A DNA stretch of 64,000 bases from a bacterium (GTDB lineage: Bacteria; Chloroflexota; Dormibacteria; Aeolococcales; Bog-877). Made by a program: the position numbers and the translations under genes. The stretch spans positions 61 to 64,060 of the forward strand of contig JAKAXE010000004.1 in the NCBI GenBank assembly GCA_021816695.1, written 5' to 3'. Positions 56,997-62,721 of the stretch are shown here, one piece after another (position 1 is the stretch's first letter; each line of letters starts with the position of its first letter). A model generated the notes under the pieces. The model worked only from the letters and a program-made list of their open reading frames with translations. It made no database searches and was not told where the DNA came from.

Positions 56997-58319
56997 ATGG
57001 CACGGAACGCGGACGGAGTGAAGCAGGGGGACCCCGGCACCTCCCAAGGTGGCGCGCCGCTCCCCTCGGACGAGGACCGGAGAGGAGGGTCAGGAAGCGC
57101 CTGGAGGGTGCTGGGAACCACCTCCCTCGCCCACTTCGTCAATGACGGGACGGTGTTCTTCGTCCCGGTGATGGCCGACCTGTTGGCCAGCCGCGGCCAC
57201 GTCTCTGCGCCGGTCATCACGGTGATGCTCACCGGGTTCTACCTCAGCTCCAGCGCCGCCGGGATCCTGATCGGGCGGCTGGCTGACTCCGGCGGCAGCC
57301 GGGGGGCCAAGATGGCGATGGGGATCCTGGGCCTGGCCGCCGGGCTGCTGCTGTTCGCGGCGGCGGTGGCCGCTCCGGATGTGACAGAGAGGACGGTGCT
57401 GGCGCTCCTGGCGGCGCTGGTGGCCGGAGTCGGCAGCTCCGTCTACCACCCGCTGGGAGCCAGCCTGATCATCGCCGCCTTCCCACCCCGCGGCCGGGCC
57501 CGGGCGCTGGGGGCCAACGGCGCCATGGGAAGCTTGGGGCGGGCGCTGTATCCCACACTCTTCTTCGCGGTGACCGGGCTCATCGCCTCCCAGACCGGTG
57601 CGGTCGTGGTCTTCGCCGTGGTGGCCGCGGGGGCGGCGGTCCTGCTCTGGACCACCCGGGTGGACTCCCGGCCCGTCGCCGGGGCCGGGGCCCACTCCCC
57701 GGTCGCGACCGGCGGCGCCCCCCAGAGGGCCTGGCTGGACCGCAACATCGCCATCCTCACCGTGGTCTCGCTGCTGCGGTCTTTGGCCTTCACCGGGATG
57801 GTGGCCTGGCTCCCCACCTACTTCACCCGGGAGCGGGGGCTCGGGCTCTCCGGGGAGCTGGGCCTGATGGTGACCCTGCTGTACGCCGGTGGGATCGTGG
57901 GCCAGCCGGTGTTCGGGCTGCTGGCCGACCGGGTGGACAAGCGGCTCATGCTGGCCCTAGCCACGCTGGGCGCGGCAGGCACCACCTTCGGATACCTCAA
58001 CGTGGGCGGTGCCGGAGGGCTGGCCCTCCTGGGCCTGTTCGGGGTCTTCAACTTCAGCGGCTTCCCCCTCCTCATGTCGCTGGTCGCCGACTACGCCCCT
58101 AAGGGCAGCTCCTCGACCGCCAACGCCTTCGTCTGGGGGCTGGGATCCACCGGGGGGCAGGCGCTGGGGCCACTGGTTATCGGGCTGCTGGCGCTCAGCT
58201 CCTACCGGCACCTGGCGGTCTCCTTCGAGTCGCTGGCGCTGGTGGCGGTGGCCGGCCTGGTCGGCCTGCTGCTCCTCCCCCGCGCCGGGAGGCGATCCAA
58301 GGCCCAGCTGTTCGGCTGA
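56997..58319 (+). CDS. MFS transporter (Fsr-like)
   Basis: LAHFVNDG, GRLADSGG, SSVYHPLG, GLLADRVDKR; start uncertain. Confidence 0.85.
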   Translation: MARNADGVKQGDPGTSQGGAPLPSDEDRRGGSGSAWRVLGTTSLAHFVNDGTVFFVPVMADLLASRGHVSAPVITVMLTGFYLSSSAAGILIGRLADSGGSRGAKMAMGILGLAAGLLLFAAAVAAPDVTERTVLALLAALVAGVGSSVYHPLGASLIIAAFPPRGRARALGANGAMGSLGRALYPTLFFAVTGLIASQTGAVVVFAVVAAGAAVLLWTTRVDSRPVAGAGAHSPVATGGAPQRAWLDRNIAILTVVSLLRSLAFTGMVAWLPTYFTRERGLGLSGELGLMVTLLYAGGIVGQPVFGLLADRVDKRLMLALATLGAAGTTFGYLNVGGAGGLALLGLFGVFNFSGFPLLMSLVADYAPKGSSSTANAFVWGLGSTGGQALGPLVIGLLALSSYRHLAVSFESLALVAVAGLVGLLLLPRAGRRSKAQLFG

Positions 58320-58328
58320 GCGGCACCG

Positions 58329-58466
58329 TCAATGGTGGCGGCGCACCATTCCCAGCATCTTGAGATTGATGCGCAGGAACCTCCAGGCCTGCCAGGGGAG
58401 GAAGGTGCGCAGGAAGACGGTCCACCGGGTGGGCAAGGTGACGGAGGCGGCCTCTTCGTCAGGCAC
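58329..58466 (-). CDS. Small 45-aa amphipathic protein downstream of SQR (below the ORF-track cutoff)
   Basis: GTG 58466 to TGA 58329 reads MPDEEAASVTLPTRWTVFLRTFLPWQAWRFLRINLKMLGMVRRHH; AGGGGG SD; GC3-rich codons. Confidence 0.7.
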   Translation of the reverse strand: MPDEEAASVTLPTRWTVFLRTFLPWQAWRFLRINLKMLGMVRRHH

Positions 58467-58493
58467 AGCTGGCCCCCTGTTGGGCACCCTGAC

Positions 58494-59945
58494 CTACTCC
58501 GGGATCAGGGGCCAGCCGGGGCGGAGCTTGGCCTTGTAGATGAACATGTGGTGCAGCAGGATCTTGATCCAGTGCCCGGCCAGGCCGATTTCGCCGAACG
58601 TCCGCTTCATGTCGCGTCCGTATCCCGGGTAGCGCTCGTAGTCGGGCACGACCGGGTACACGGTCATCGAGGCGGCCGTGCCGGAGAAGGGGTTGGCCCC
58701 GGCCGAGGCGACGCAGGCGGCCCCCATCTCGGCCATCGAGGCGGTCGCGGTGGGGCGGGGCGCACCCCTCAGCATGTCGACGACGCTCCGGGCCACCGCC
58801 CTGCCGATCTGGGCCGAAGGCATTCCCGTGCGTGGGGCGGCCGGGGTGATGACCGTGCCCCGGGGGCTGGTGTGGGGGCGGGAGATGGGATGAGGCGGTG
58901 CGAAGGCGATCCCCGCCGCGAAGAGGTTGGGATAGGCGGGTGACTGGTAGGTGCGGGGCCAGTCCCGCGCCGACCACTCCTCGAAGGGCCGCGGGGTGTA
59001 GTCCCCGTCCACCCGCATGAACCCGTTGGGCTGGAACAGCCGGTCGGTGATCTCCGTGCCCTGGCGGTCGAACGCCCGGAGCCCCACACCCGAGAAGGGG
59101 GGGAGAAGCATGGCGAAGTCGAACCCCAGCTCTGCCTCGCCCCCGTCGAGGGTCTCGTAGGACAGCCGATCGGGCTCCACCTTGCGCACGTGGGCCCGGG
59201 TTATCCAGCTGATGCCCCGCTCGGCGAAGAGGGAGGCCGTGAAGATGCTGGCGGGTATGAGGTACCCGGAGCGGCGCATCTGCATCCCGGCCATCCCGAA
59301 GTCCCCCAACTCGTACTCGTTGGTGATCCAGACGATCTCGGCGAGCTCCCGCACCTTGCGGGCCCTCAGTTCGAACTCCAGGTTGACGATGTACTCGAAG
59401 GCCGCTCCCTCGCAGGTGCATCCTCCATGTCCCACCCCGACCACGAAACGCTGGCGCTGGCCCCGCCGCATCCGCTCGACCGCTCGGTCCAGCGCCCGAG
59501 CCGCCAGCTGGGCATGCTCCGGGGTGCAGACCGACATGCTGTTGGCCTCCGGCCCCAGACCCTCGGTCATGTCGAAGCGCAGCCGGGGTCCCGTGGCGTT
59601 GATGAGGAAGTCGTAAGGCAGCCGAAGGAAATCGCCATCCCCGCCCGCCACCCTCTCCACGGCGACGAAGGGCCGGGAATCGCCCGCGTCACCCTCCGGA
59701 TGAATTTGGCGGGCGAAGCCGTGGACGAACTCGATTCCGTGCCGCTCGTAGACCGGGGCCAGCGGGAAGGTCACCTGGTGTGGCTGCATCAGGCCCACCC
59801 CGACCCAGATGTTGGACGGCACCCAGTTGTAGCGGTCGACCGGGGAGACAACGGTGACGGTTTCAGTCCGAGGAAGCCACCTCCGCGCGAAGGAAGCGGC
59901 CGTGTGCCCGGCGATACCCGACCCGAGCACCACCACCCGGCTCAC
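58494..59945 (-). CDS. sqr: Sulfide:quinone oxidoreductase-family flavoprotein
   Basis: GSGIAG; SVCTPEHA, CTCEGAAFEY, PRTGM and AACVAS align with SQR FAD-linking and catalytic Cys motifs. Confidence 0.8.
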   Translation of the reverse strand: MSRVVVLGSGIAGHTAASFARRWLPRTETVTVVSPVDRYNWVPSNIWVGVGLMQPHQVTFPLAPVYERHGIEFVHGFARQIHPEGDAGDSRPFVAVERVAGGDGDFLRLPYDFLINATGPRLRFDMTEGLGPEANSMSVCTPEHAQLAARALDRAVERMRRGQRQRFVVGVGHGGCTCEGAAFEYIVNLEFELRARKVRELAEIVWITNEYELGDFGMAGMQMRRSGYLIPASIFTASLFAERGISWITRAHVRKVEPDRLSYETLDGGEAELGFDFAMLLPPFSGVGLRAFDRQGTEITDRLFQPNGFMRVDGDYTPRPFEEWSARDWPRTYQSPAYPNLFAAGIAFAPPHPISRPHTSPRGTVITPAAPRTGMPSAQIGRAVARSVVDMLRGAPRPTATASMAEMGAACVASAGANPFSGTAASMTVYPVVPDYERYPGYGRDMKRTFGEIGLAGHWIKILLHHMFIYKAKLRPGWPLIPE

Positions 59946-60058: not shown

Positions 60059-60400
60059 TCAGACCTGGGGGCCGTCCCCCCGCTGAACCTGGCGCAGGAT
60101 GCTCTCGATCACCTCCTGCCCGGGGTGGCGGCGGCTCCCCACCCGGCGACTGGGGTTGCGGCGCCGCTCCTGGCGGGGGCTGAGCATGTGCGCCTCCTGC
60201 TTGCGCCAGACCCGCTCGATCAGGATGCGCACCTCGGCGCCGTCCTCGTAGGGGATCTGGTGCGCCTCCAAAGAGCGCCGGACCCGGTCCGGGAGCTGAG
60301 TGGCCTCGGAGAGGTTGAGCTGCTCCAGTGCCTCGAGGACATCGTCCAGGCGGCGCAGCAGAGCGCGCCTCTCGGTGGTCTCCTCGGGGGCGGTCATCAC
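60059..60400 (-). CDS. Hypothetical protein (~113 aa), helical with Arg-rich tail
   Basis: LLRRLDDVLEALEQLNL; plausible codon use; GATAAT hexamer 6 nt before GTG 60400. Confidence 0.55.
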   Translation of the reverse strand: MMTAPEETTERRALLRRLDDVLEALEQLNLSEATQLPDRVRRSLEAHQIPYEDGAEVRILIERVWRKQEAHMLSPRQERRRNPSRRVGSRRHPGQEVIESILRQVQRGDGPQV

Positions 60401-60438
60401 GGCCCGATTATCCGCGTTCCGGAGAGCGGGCCGCCAGT

Positions 60439-62721
60439 TCAGGCGGCCTTCGCCGGAGGCACCGGCGCGGAGCTCTCGTACAGGCCCAGCCGGGCCACCA
60501 GCCGCTGGGCCGGAGCCGGCGCCCACCAGTTGGCCCGGCCGAGCAGGCGCATCAAGGCCGGGACCATGACCCCCCGCACCAGGCTGGCGTCAACCGCCAC
60601 CGCGATGGCCATCCCCAGCCCCAGGATCTGGATGTCCAGGACGTGCCCCAGGGCGAAGGCGCCGAACACCGCGATCATGATCAGCGCTGCCGAGGTGATG
60701 ACCCCTCCGGTCGAGGCCATGCCCTCCTGAACCGCCCGGCGGTTGTCCCCGGTGGCCAGATAGCGCTCCCTGATGCGGGTGAGCAGGAAGACCTCGTAGT
60801 CCATGGAGAGGCCGAAGATGAAGGCGAACATCAACACCGGGTCGGTGGCGGTGATCGAGCCGGGCGAGCTGAAGTTCAGCAGGTGGGAGAGATGTCCCTC
60901 CTGGAAGATCCAGACCATGGCGCCGAAGGCGGCACTGATGGAGATGAGGCTCATCAGCACCGCCTTGATGGGCAGCACCACCGAGCCAAAGGTGAGGAAC
61001 AGGACCGCCATGGTGGCCAGCACCACCATGGCCACCGCCCAGGGGATGGTGTCGGCGAAGGCCTGGAGGAAGTCCACCGAGACGGCCGCCCCGCCTCCGT
61101 ACAGTACCGAGGCGCCGGGTGGCGGGGCCAGCCGCCGAAGCTGGGACACCAACCTCGCCCCCGAACTGGAGTCGGGACCGTATGCGGTGGAGACCTCGAA
61201 TTGGGCCACAGGTCCGGCCAGATAGCCCGCGATGTACTTCTCGACCGCCGCCGGGCGCTGTGCCGGGGGCCCGCTGAGCAACCCCAGATAGACCTTCGCG
61301 GGAATCCCCGGGGGTGGGGAGAGCACCCCGACCAAGCCCTGCACCCCATGGAGCCGCTCCGCCCGTGCCAGGTAGGCGCTGAGGGTGGACTGCTGGGCCG
61401 GGGTCAGCCTCCCCGAGAGCTGGTGGCCGTAGTTCACCACCATGTTGAGGTCGTTCACCCCACCGGCCTGGGGGAAATTGTTCACCAACTGGGCGTAGCC
61501 GGTGCGCGCCGGGCCAGCCGGGATCTCCTGGACGCTGGCCCCAGTGGAGAGCCGGAGGCTGAGGAAGGGCGTGCCCACGGCCAGCAGGAGCACGGCCACC
61601 GGGAGGGCGATGGCCACCGGATGGCGCATCACCCGCTCGCCGGCCCATCCCCAGAAGCTGGAATGGTGGTGGGTGAGCTCAGTTGCACCGCGCAGCCCGC
61701 GCCTCAGGGTGAGCCAGTTGAGCCGGTTGCCGAGCAGGGAGAGGATGGCCGGCAGGACGGTGAGGGCGTAGAGCAGGGTGCAGGCGACCACCACCACACC
61801 TCCGATCCCCATGCTCCCCAGGGCGGTCGCCGGGAAGAGGGTCAGGGAGAGGAGACCCAGGGCCACGGCGGTGCCGGAGATGGCCACCGCCTTGCCGGCG
61901 CTGGCGGTGGCCGCCACCACCGCCACCTCGGGCGGGCTCTGGGTCAGCTCCTCGCGGAAGCGCTTGACAAAGAAGAGCGAGTAGTCGATGGCCAGCCCCA
62001 GCCCCACGATGGTGGCCACATTGGTGACGAAGATGGACATGGAGAAGTGGGCGGCGATGAGGCGTATCACCGAGAGGGCGGTGGGGACGGCCAGCCCGGC
62101 GATCAGGAGGGGGAGGAGGGCCGCGGTGACCGAGCCGAAGACCAAGAGCAGGAGGAGCAGGGAGATGGGGAGGGCGATCAGCTCGGCGGTCTTGAGCTGA
62201 GCCTCCAAGGCGGTGTTGTAGAGGGCGTCGATAGGGGCCGGGCCTGTCACCCACATGGTGAGCCCCCTAGGGCGGCTCAGGTAGGACTCCAGCTGGGGCA
62301 GCTGGTTGGTGGCCGCCACCTCGCTCATCTTCAGGTTGACCACCGCGAAGGTCTCATACCCCCGGTCCCCGATGAAGATCGGGAGCTTGGTGGTGGCGTA
62401 GGTCTGGACCGAGGCCACCTGCGGGCGGCGGGCCAGACGGGCGAAGCTGGAGGCCACCTCGGCCTGGACCTGCGGGCTGGTCACGTCCTGGTGGGAGCTG
62501 CGGTACACCAGGAGCAGCTGGGTGGTGGCGGCGCCGAAGTGCCGGGTGAGGAGCTGGCTGGCGCGCTGGCTCTGCGAGCCCGGGACCGAGAAGCCCCCCG
62601 CCTGGAGGGAGCCCCCGAGCGGCCCGGAGAGGACCAGGAGCAGGACCATCAGGGCCAGCCCCCCCACCGGAATGGAGCGCCGGTGGCGGTGGGCGAAGGC
62701 GCCGAGGCGGGCGAAGGGCAT
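60439..62721 (-). CDS. MMPL-family RND transporter
   Basis: GLGLAIDYSLFFVKRFREEL, FGLSMDYEVFLLTRIRE, DASLVRGVMVPALM. Confidence 0.95.
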   Translation of the reverse strand: MPFARLGAFAHRHRRSIPVGGLALMVLLLVLSGPLGGSLQAGGFSVPGSQSQRASQLLTRHFGAATTQLLLVYRSSHQDVTSPQVQAEVASSFARLARRPQVASVQTYATTKLPIFIGDRGYETFAVVNLKMSEVAATNQLPQLESYLSRPRGLTMWVTGPAPIDALYNTALEAQLKTAELIALPISLLLLLLVFGSVTAALLPLLIAGLAVPTALSVIRLIAAHFSMSIFVTNVATIVGLGLAIDYSLFFVKRFREELTQSPPEVAVVAATASAGKAVAISGTAVALGLLSLTLFPATALGSMGIGGVVVVACTLLYALTVLPAILSLLGNRLNWLTLRRGLRGATELTHHHSSFWGWAGERVMRHPVAIALPVAVLLLAVGTPFLSLRLSTGASVQEIPAGPARTGYAQLVNNFPQAGGVNDLNMVVNYGHQLSGRLTPAQQSTLSAYLARAERLHGVQGLVGVLSPPPGIPAKVYLGLLSGPPAQRPAAVEKYIAGYLAGPVAQFEVSTAYGPDSSSGARLVSQLRRLAPPPGASVLYGGGAAVSVDFLQAFADTIPWAVAMVVLATMAVLFLTFGSVVLPIKAVLMSLISISAAFGAMVWIFQEGHLSHLLNFSSPGSITATDPVLMFAFIFGLSMDYEVFLLTRIRERYLATGDNRRAVQEGMASTGGVITSAALIMIAVFGAFALGHVLDIQILGLGMAIAVAVDASLVRGVMVPALMRLLGRANWWAPAPAQRLVARLGLYESSAPVPPAKAA

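Follow-up and report, generated by a model that had tools for sequence, protein, structure and literature searches.

In sulfide detoxification and in energy metabolism based on sulfur, sulfide:quinone oxidoreductases (SQRs) are treated as single-polypeptide enzymes and are usually expressed alone for biochemical work, and the solved or characterized SQRs examined here are described as single polypeptides. Small helical partners are familiar from cytochrome bd, whose CydX/YbgT is a single helix of 30–60 aa encoded directly after the catalytic genes and often overlooked; subunits of this type are required for the stability or activity of the complex. In Bacillus subtilis, YjlD (NDH-2), a flavoprotein that is monotopic, reduces quinone and belongs with SQR to the two-dinucleotide-binding-domain superfamily, has a small co-operonic partner, YjlC. 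Most SQRs carry two C-terminal amphipathic helices that serve in membrane binding, oligomerization and the quinone site (PMC9666304). The type VI enzyme (SqrF) of Thiocapsa roseopersicina has a single C-terminal alpha-helix and stayed membrane-bound when this helix was deleted; a small partner gene of SqrF is not mentioned in that work (PMC9666304).

The window analyzed here, a 64,000-nt stretch of DNA from a member of the Dormibacteria, encodes on its minus strand an SQR-like flavoprotein of 483 aa (sqr, 58494–59945) that is directly followed by a small open reading frame (ORF). We call the flavoprotein SQR-like on the basis of its fold and cysteines, and its sulfide:quinone activity is putative. 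The best PDB sequence matches were the type I SQRs (SqrA) of Aquifex aeolicus (3HYV; 1e-38) and Acidithiobacillus ferrooxidans (3T2Z/3SZ0), and Foldseek gave a TM-score of 0.81 against 3hyv. The FAD-binding N-terminus, VVVLGSGIAGH, carries the GxGxxG signature of the two-dinucleotide-binding-domain fold. In the HMMER alignment to 3hyv, the segments SVCTPEHA/SICTAEHA, GCTCEGAAFEY/GVSCFGPAYEF and AACVASAG/AICIADFG pair the SQR cysteines with Aquifex C124/C156/C347, and C140, C178 and C411 show no variation across 16 homologues. The protein therefore shares with type I SQRs the fold, the catalytic cysteine positions and the character of a monotopic flavoprotein with a C-terminal amphipathic helix. 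It differs from them in sequence identity (about 26–36%) and in length (483 aa versus about 430). Its match to Pfam Pyr_redox_2 was weak (3e-5, below the gathering cut-off), as were its NCBIfam matches, which suggests that this SQR belongs to a distinct, longer clade.

Further differences lie at the C-terminus. The AlphaFold2 (AF2) model contains one helix (residues 455–474) past the last beta element, in a region of low confidence (pLDDT 45–56), and the protein ends at residue 483, whereas type I SQRs have two such helices in cis (PMC9666304). The C-terminus, GHWIKILLHHMFIYKAKLRPGWPLIPE, is almost invariant among homologues; the tail H458...PGWxLIPE is nearly so, with PGWQIIPE kept even in 43%-identical relatives, and could mark the peptide-associated SQR clade. 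This tail and the obligatory small gene downstream set the window SQR apart from the type I enzymes. SqrF resembles the window SQR in having one C-terminal alpha-helix (PMC9666304) but is shorter, with its C-terminal cysteine at position 332 and its helix at ~366, compared to Cys411 and 455–474 here. Type VI membership, considered because of the single helix, was not adopted, since these lengths and positions differ.

The original prediction described the small ORF as a 45-aa protein, and the sequence agrees: from GTG 58466, 27 nt past the sqr stop (TAG 58494–58496) and with AGGGGG 6 nt upstream, the frame runs on the minus strand to TGA 58329–58331 (58329–58466), giving (V/M)PDEEAASVTLPTRWTVFLRTFLPWQAWRFLRINLKMLGMVRRHH, the C-terminal part of which (...VPDEEAASVTLPTRWTVFLRTFLPWQAWRFLRINLKMLGMVRRHH) is identical to the earlier reading. 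The same frame is also open from GTG 58487, 6 nt past the sqr stop, yielding a longest form of 52 aa (MPNRGPAVPDEEAASVTLPTRWTVFLRTFLPWQAWRFLRINLKMLGMVRRHH; 58329–58487, minus), which is our preferred gene model. Nine nucleotides separate the peptide stop from the stop of a convergent MFS transporter gene (56997–58319, plus; Pfam MFS_1, 1e-41), a neighbor outside the module. This MFS gene adjoins the module only in the two congeners discussed below and is absent from the other neighborhoods examined.

The choice of start codon follows from the junction between the two genes. In the window (58488–58502, minus), the last sqr codons, CCG GAG, contain the Shine–Dalgarno (SD) sequence GGAG and are followed by TAG, the 6-nt spacer GTCAGG and GTG 58487. 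Among 81 unique junctions, sqr ends in CCG GAG (Pro-Glu) in 67, which supplies the GGAG; the spacer from sqr stop to peptide start is 2–8 nt (mode, 4), the start is ATG in 78, and a few junctions overlap in the ATGA manner. GTG 58487 is preferred because its position matches that of these ATG codons, and by homology to the other junctions the window product is probably the 52-aa form. In one congener (G003), ATG stands where the window has GTG 58487 and the AGGGGG upstream of GTG 58466 is not kept; related Dormibacteria peptides begin MERRRPE.../MGRKRPE.... The shorter form is a possible alternative, and in the near relative P0001 a gene caller picked the corresponding start. The original prediction was thus right about the gene and, by junction homology, probably placed its start codon too far downstream.

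Judged from these junctions, the peptide is translationally coupled to sqr, and the shared SD probably gives near-equimolar synthesis. Loci with long spacers (L100, L081, L107 and L112–L114) carry a separate GGAGG or GAGG inside the spacer, a compensation that points to selection for translation of the peptide. The last two codons of the SQR tail PGWxLIPE (58494–58520, minus; residues 476–483) also act as the SD of the peptide gene, and constraints on the protein and on the RNA thus coincide at this place.

In this GC-rich region the ORF list contains dozens of spurious overlapping ORFs, so an open frame by itself is no proof of a gene. Two congeneric genomes show the same arrangement (G004, SQR 97% identical; G003, 91%), and in a DNA alignment of the three the ORF differences are mostly synonymous in the peptide frame; in the 28 C-terminal codons, G003 and the window differ by five changes, all of them silent. 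Replacements accumulate in the antisense frame, and the short spacer past the sqr stop has diverged and contains a 1-nt indel. Homologues of 45–68 aa numbered 52 in a word-indexed search of 5.8 billion proteins, and scanning 1.84 billion representatives in full with HMMER yielded 295 clusters (50% identity) at E<=1e-3, nearly all of 33–131 aa. In the family alignment, an N-terminal region that is highly variable in sequence and length (16 to about 60 residues) precedes a core of sharp conservation, Y(V/A)TxPTRxTVFLRTFLPWQAWRFxRINLKMxxIIRRSH, in which 14 columns are invariant among 53 sequences. In the window, the 30-codon conserved core (PTRWTVFLRTFLPWQAWRFLRINLKMLGMV; 58347–58436, minus) is predicted to form part of one long amphipathic helix. 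Across 80 unique gene sequences this core has a dN/dS of ~0.23 and nucleotide diversities of 0.21, 0.15 and 0.39 at codon positions 1, 2 and 3. The amino-acid motif is kept across phyla of very different GC content and codon usage, surviving for example in a low-GC contig (P0322). The ORF is a protein-coding gene under purifying selection.

This codon-level evidence bears directly on the alternative that the ORF encodes no functional protein and owes its conservation to an element at the RNA or DNA level, for example a terminator or a structure in the sqr 3'-UTR, or is merely a chance frame. Such an account could draw on the abundance of spurious ORFs in GC-rich DNA of this kind and on a palindrome with 7-bp arms (AATGGTG-GCGGCG-CACCATT, 58332–58352) that lies between the two convergent genes and runs across the final peptide codons (MVRRHH). 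It does not explain the excess of synonymous change in the peptide frame over the antisense frame, the low dN/dS of the core, the persistence of the motif across differing base compositions, or the start codon and SD, which are conserved or compensated. At the 3' end of the peptide gene we found no terminator-like site, and the local RNA fold was no better than shuffles (z = -0.85); the terminator or RNA-structure account of this end was rejected on these grounds. Taken on the sequence evidence, the non-protein alternative is effectively refuted, and we give it almost no weight.

The peptide gene is tightly linked to sqr. We collected 80 loci with relatives of the window SQR (69–97% identity) from one-genome-per-species contigs, and a six-frame HMM search found the peptide co-directional with sqr and directly 3' of it in 78 cases; the remaining two contigs end 11–21 nt past sqr, so that all 78 loci with downstream DNA carry the peptide. 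These loci come from Dormibacteria-like MAGs, Actinomycetota, Gemmatimonadota, Acidobacteriota and Candidatus Eisenbacteria, the actinomycetotal carriers including Thermoleophilia, Solirubrobacterales, Gaiellales, Acidimicrobiales and the cultured Conexibacter sp. S30A1. Going by contig sequences, the pairing of peptide and SQR occurs in at least six bacterial phyla, and the peptide gene co-occurs and is co-oriented with the catalytic gene across distant taxa. The original prediction had looked ahead to a conserved RTFLPWQxWRF ORF adjoining sqr homologues, and this was found at 78 of 78 loci in several phyla. Comparative sequence evidence therefore gives good support to a functional link between the peptide and this SQR clade, and we consider it very likely that the ORF encodes a functional protein that acts with SQR.

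More distant relatives show the same pairing. A gammaproteobacterium-like contig (L107) has an SQR of 55% identity with a diverged peptide behind it. Within the phylum of the window, a six-frame scan detected the peptide in only 7 of 301 genomes; in four of the five hits that we fetched, it lies behind an SQR of 43–60% identity that keeps the tail PGWxIIPE, and the peptides of these four loci are of a shorter, diverged form (MQITDKDRFWMNFKPYQLWRFIVLNIKILKAISHSKRA), a subfamily with 24 further clusters. The fifth hit (L110, 3381–3551; G214:C29) is an orphan fragment that retains only the C-terminal half of the motif (...GDLPWQLVRFVWINFKMIDMIRVSQ); its flanks are free of sqr for 3 kb in both directions, and it is probably the remnant of a lost sqr–peptide module. 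Seventeen paralogous SQR-like loci from related genomes (30–39% identity) are without the peptide. We found no natural SQR–peptide fusion among the 295 clusters of the HMMER scan; the sole long hit (P0246, 357 aa) was rejected as a fusion, as it appears to be a frameshifted sqr that continues into the peptide frame.

Beyond sqr, the peptide neighborhoods have nothing in common, with LysR/SLAC1, LUD-domain, Asp/Glu racemase, cydAB-ABC and MFS genes variously present. In two unrelated carriers the sqr–peptide pair lies beside a cytochrome bd operon (L025, 6227–8635, with cydAB and an ABC transporter; L107, 300–3404, with cydAB-cydX/ybgT-ybgE and cydP), an adjacency that fits a sulfide-tolerant respiratory module and is not a general association. 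Such neighbors raise the alternative that the peptide has a sulfide-related membrane role independent of SQR, for example in handling polysulfide or sulfur products, in membrane protection or in contact with a respiratory complex such as cytochrome bd, and is linked to sqr for co-expression only. The direct placement of cydAB beside the pair in these two loci is what this alternative would lead one to see, and a basic interfacial helix could bind other partners or lipids. Against it, cyd, rhodanese, MMPL and other neighbors are not conserved and sqr alone is, the peptide is without a conserved Cys for sulfur chemistry, and the only orphan copy found (L110) looks like a remnant. We therefore regard an SQR-independent role as improbable and return to a peptide that works with SQR.

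The peptide alone was modeled by AF2 as a helix spanning residues 14–44 of the 45-aa form (pLDDT 75). Its maximum hydrophobic moment is 0.63 and its net charge +5 to +8, and this agrees with the helical, amphipathic, Trp/Phe/Arg-rich character originally ascribed to it. The best 19-residue Kyte–Doolittle mean is 0.65, which indicates that the peptide is not a transmembrane segment. No Cys or His is conserved in the 53-sequence family alignment. Searches of the peptide and 53 family members against Pfam and NCBIfam gave no match beyond noise, and the family had no significant match among PDB profiles (best E-value, 0.89). All source names for its homologues read 'hypothetical protein', as in WP_249019900.1 (PGAP, Conexibacter sp. 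S30A1) and MGC8473971.1 (a Dormibacteria MAG). The original description of the gene as unannotated and typically missed by gene callers is thus only partly true, since homologues have been called in many records; the peptide gene is often annotated and never characterized. Our literature searches yielded neither a report of a small SQR subunit nor a described clade of this kind, and we regard the sqr–peptide pair as a two-gene form of SQR.

Among known small subunits, CydX/YbgT is similar to the peptide in being very short, forming a single helix and being encoded directly behind a catalytic gene, and CydX/YbgT and CydP genes are themselves annotated on the cyd operon next to the pair in L107. 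The two have no sequence similarity (no Pfam match), and CydX is a true transmembrane helix on an integral membrane complex, whereas the peptide is too polar for this and would partner a monotopic flavoprotein.

The reading that we favor, with somewhat better than even confidence, is that the peptide is a stable, stoichiometric structural small subunit or membrane anchor of SQR that completes the C-terminal domain in trans, as the comparative sequences and structure models together suggest. The peptide would be made together with the SQR encoded upstream and would work with it. Its variable, probably disordered N-terminal stretch would lead into the conserved PTRxTVFLRTFLPWQAWRFxRINLKMxxIIRR, predicted as one long, very basic, Trp/Phe-rich amphipathic helix, which may sit at the membrane interface next to the one C-terminal amphipathic helix that SQR has (GHWIKILLHHMFIYKAKL). 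The second helix, present in cis in type I SQRs, would then come from the peptide in trans, and the helix pair would complete the membrane-binding and quinone-access domain, contributing to anchoring, oligomerization and/or the quinone channel. The role would be structural or anchoring and not catalytic, because the peptide is without a conserved Cys or His. Of the original proposal of an accessory subunit or membrane anchor, the functional link is upheld by the 78/78 linkage, the coupling and the dN/dS of ~0.23, and from that link we infer the subunit or anchor role.

We likewise infer that the peptide associates physically with SQR. An in-frame read-through fusion was modeled with AF2, since the window peptide frame (GTG 58487) is in frame with sqr; the TAG was replaced by Gly, and the alignment comprised 16 paired in-frame read-through rows taken from other loci, along with unpaired rows for SQR and for the peptide. 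The SQR body was modeled confidently, the C-terminal region and linker had pLDDT values of 35–56 and the peptide helix 59–73, and this fusion model contained no confident docking of the peptide on SQR. Mutual information between SQR and peptide columns (APC, 83 pairs of sequences) was dominated by phylogeny and placed 0 of the 30 top column pairs in the SQR C-terminus, where both proteins are nearly invariant. A counterpoint to the anchor reading is that SQR keeps an amphipathic helix of its own, and together with the SqrF deletion result this means that an extra anchor is not obviously required.

The same data can be read in terms of a factor that assists assembly or targeting transiently, or of a regulator, in place of a stable subunit. 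A factor of this type would aid the insertion or folding of SQR at the membrane (for example, in flavinylation-independent maturation or oligomerization) or modulate activity or quinone access, and would not be bound stoichiometrically. Strict linkage and coupling fit this role equally, as do the missing confident docking in the fusion model and the highly variable length of the N-terminal region before the core. Accessory partners of related monotopic flavoproteins provide a precedent, the integrative YjlC–YjlD (NDH-2) model (9A63) being among the Foldseek matches, although only its flavoprotein chain was matched; YjlC is larger than the peptide, unrelated to it and encoded upstream, so the likeness is by analogy only. 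What weighs against a transient factor is that tight coupling through a shared SD favors equimolar synthesis, which is commoner for subunits than for catalytic chaperones, and that the extreme conservation of the 30-residue helix suggests a permanent, specific interface. On balance we judge the transient role unlikely.

The pattern may extend to the whole group: we see about an even chance that a large cross-phylum SQR clade consists of obligate two-subunit enzymes in which the second C-terminal amphipathic helix of classical SQRs has been replaced by a separately encoded, translationally coupled protein of 40–60 residues. The replacement protein would be part of the membrane anchor and quinone channel, and the textbook single-polypeptide monotopic SQR would have an unrecognized heteromeric form that heterologous expression of sqr only would miss. 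More generally, if these enzymes depend on a small partner, studies of sqr alone may get their activity, stability or membrane binding wrong. Members of the clade abound in lineages of soil and peat (Thermoleophilia, Acidimicrobiia, Gemmatimonadota, Acidobacteriota and Dormibacteria). With at least 295 clusters at 50% identity, the family of the peptide is without a name or model, so a profile would improve annotation; the SQR tail PGWxxIPE together with the peptide motif FLRTFLPWQxWRFxxINLKM provides a sequence marker for the clade. Among small functional proteins that attach to respiratory enzymes, a growing group, the peptide is a further clear case.

Several further observations concern the surroundings of the pair. 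Upstream of the window sqr lie an MMPL-family transporter gene (60439–62721, minus; 760 aa; Pfam, 1.5e-73) and a 155-aa ORF (60059–60526, minus) with no Pfam hit that overlaps the 3' end of the MMPL gene. An MMPL gene also occurs near the sqr–peptide pair in another locus (L021), together with ArsR-type regulators and rhodanese/OsmC genes, and a sulfur-stress gene neighborhood around the pair is possible. In G003, the sqr orthologue (L003 / L028; G003:C26) contains one in-frame TAG, such that its ORF starts at residue ~58; this could be a sequencing error or recent pseudogenization, and the peptide gene behind it is intact.
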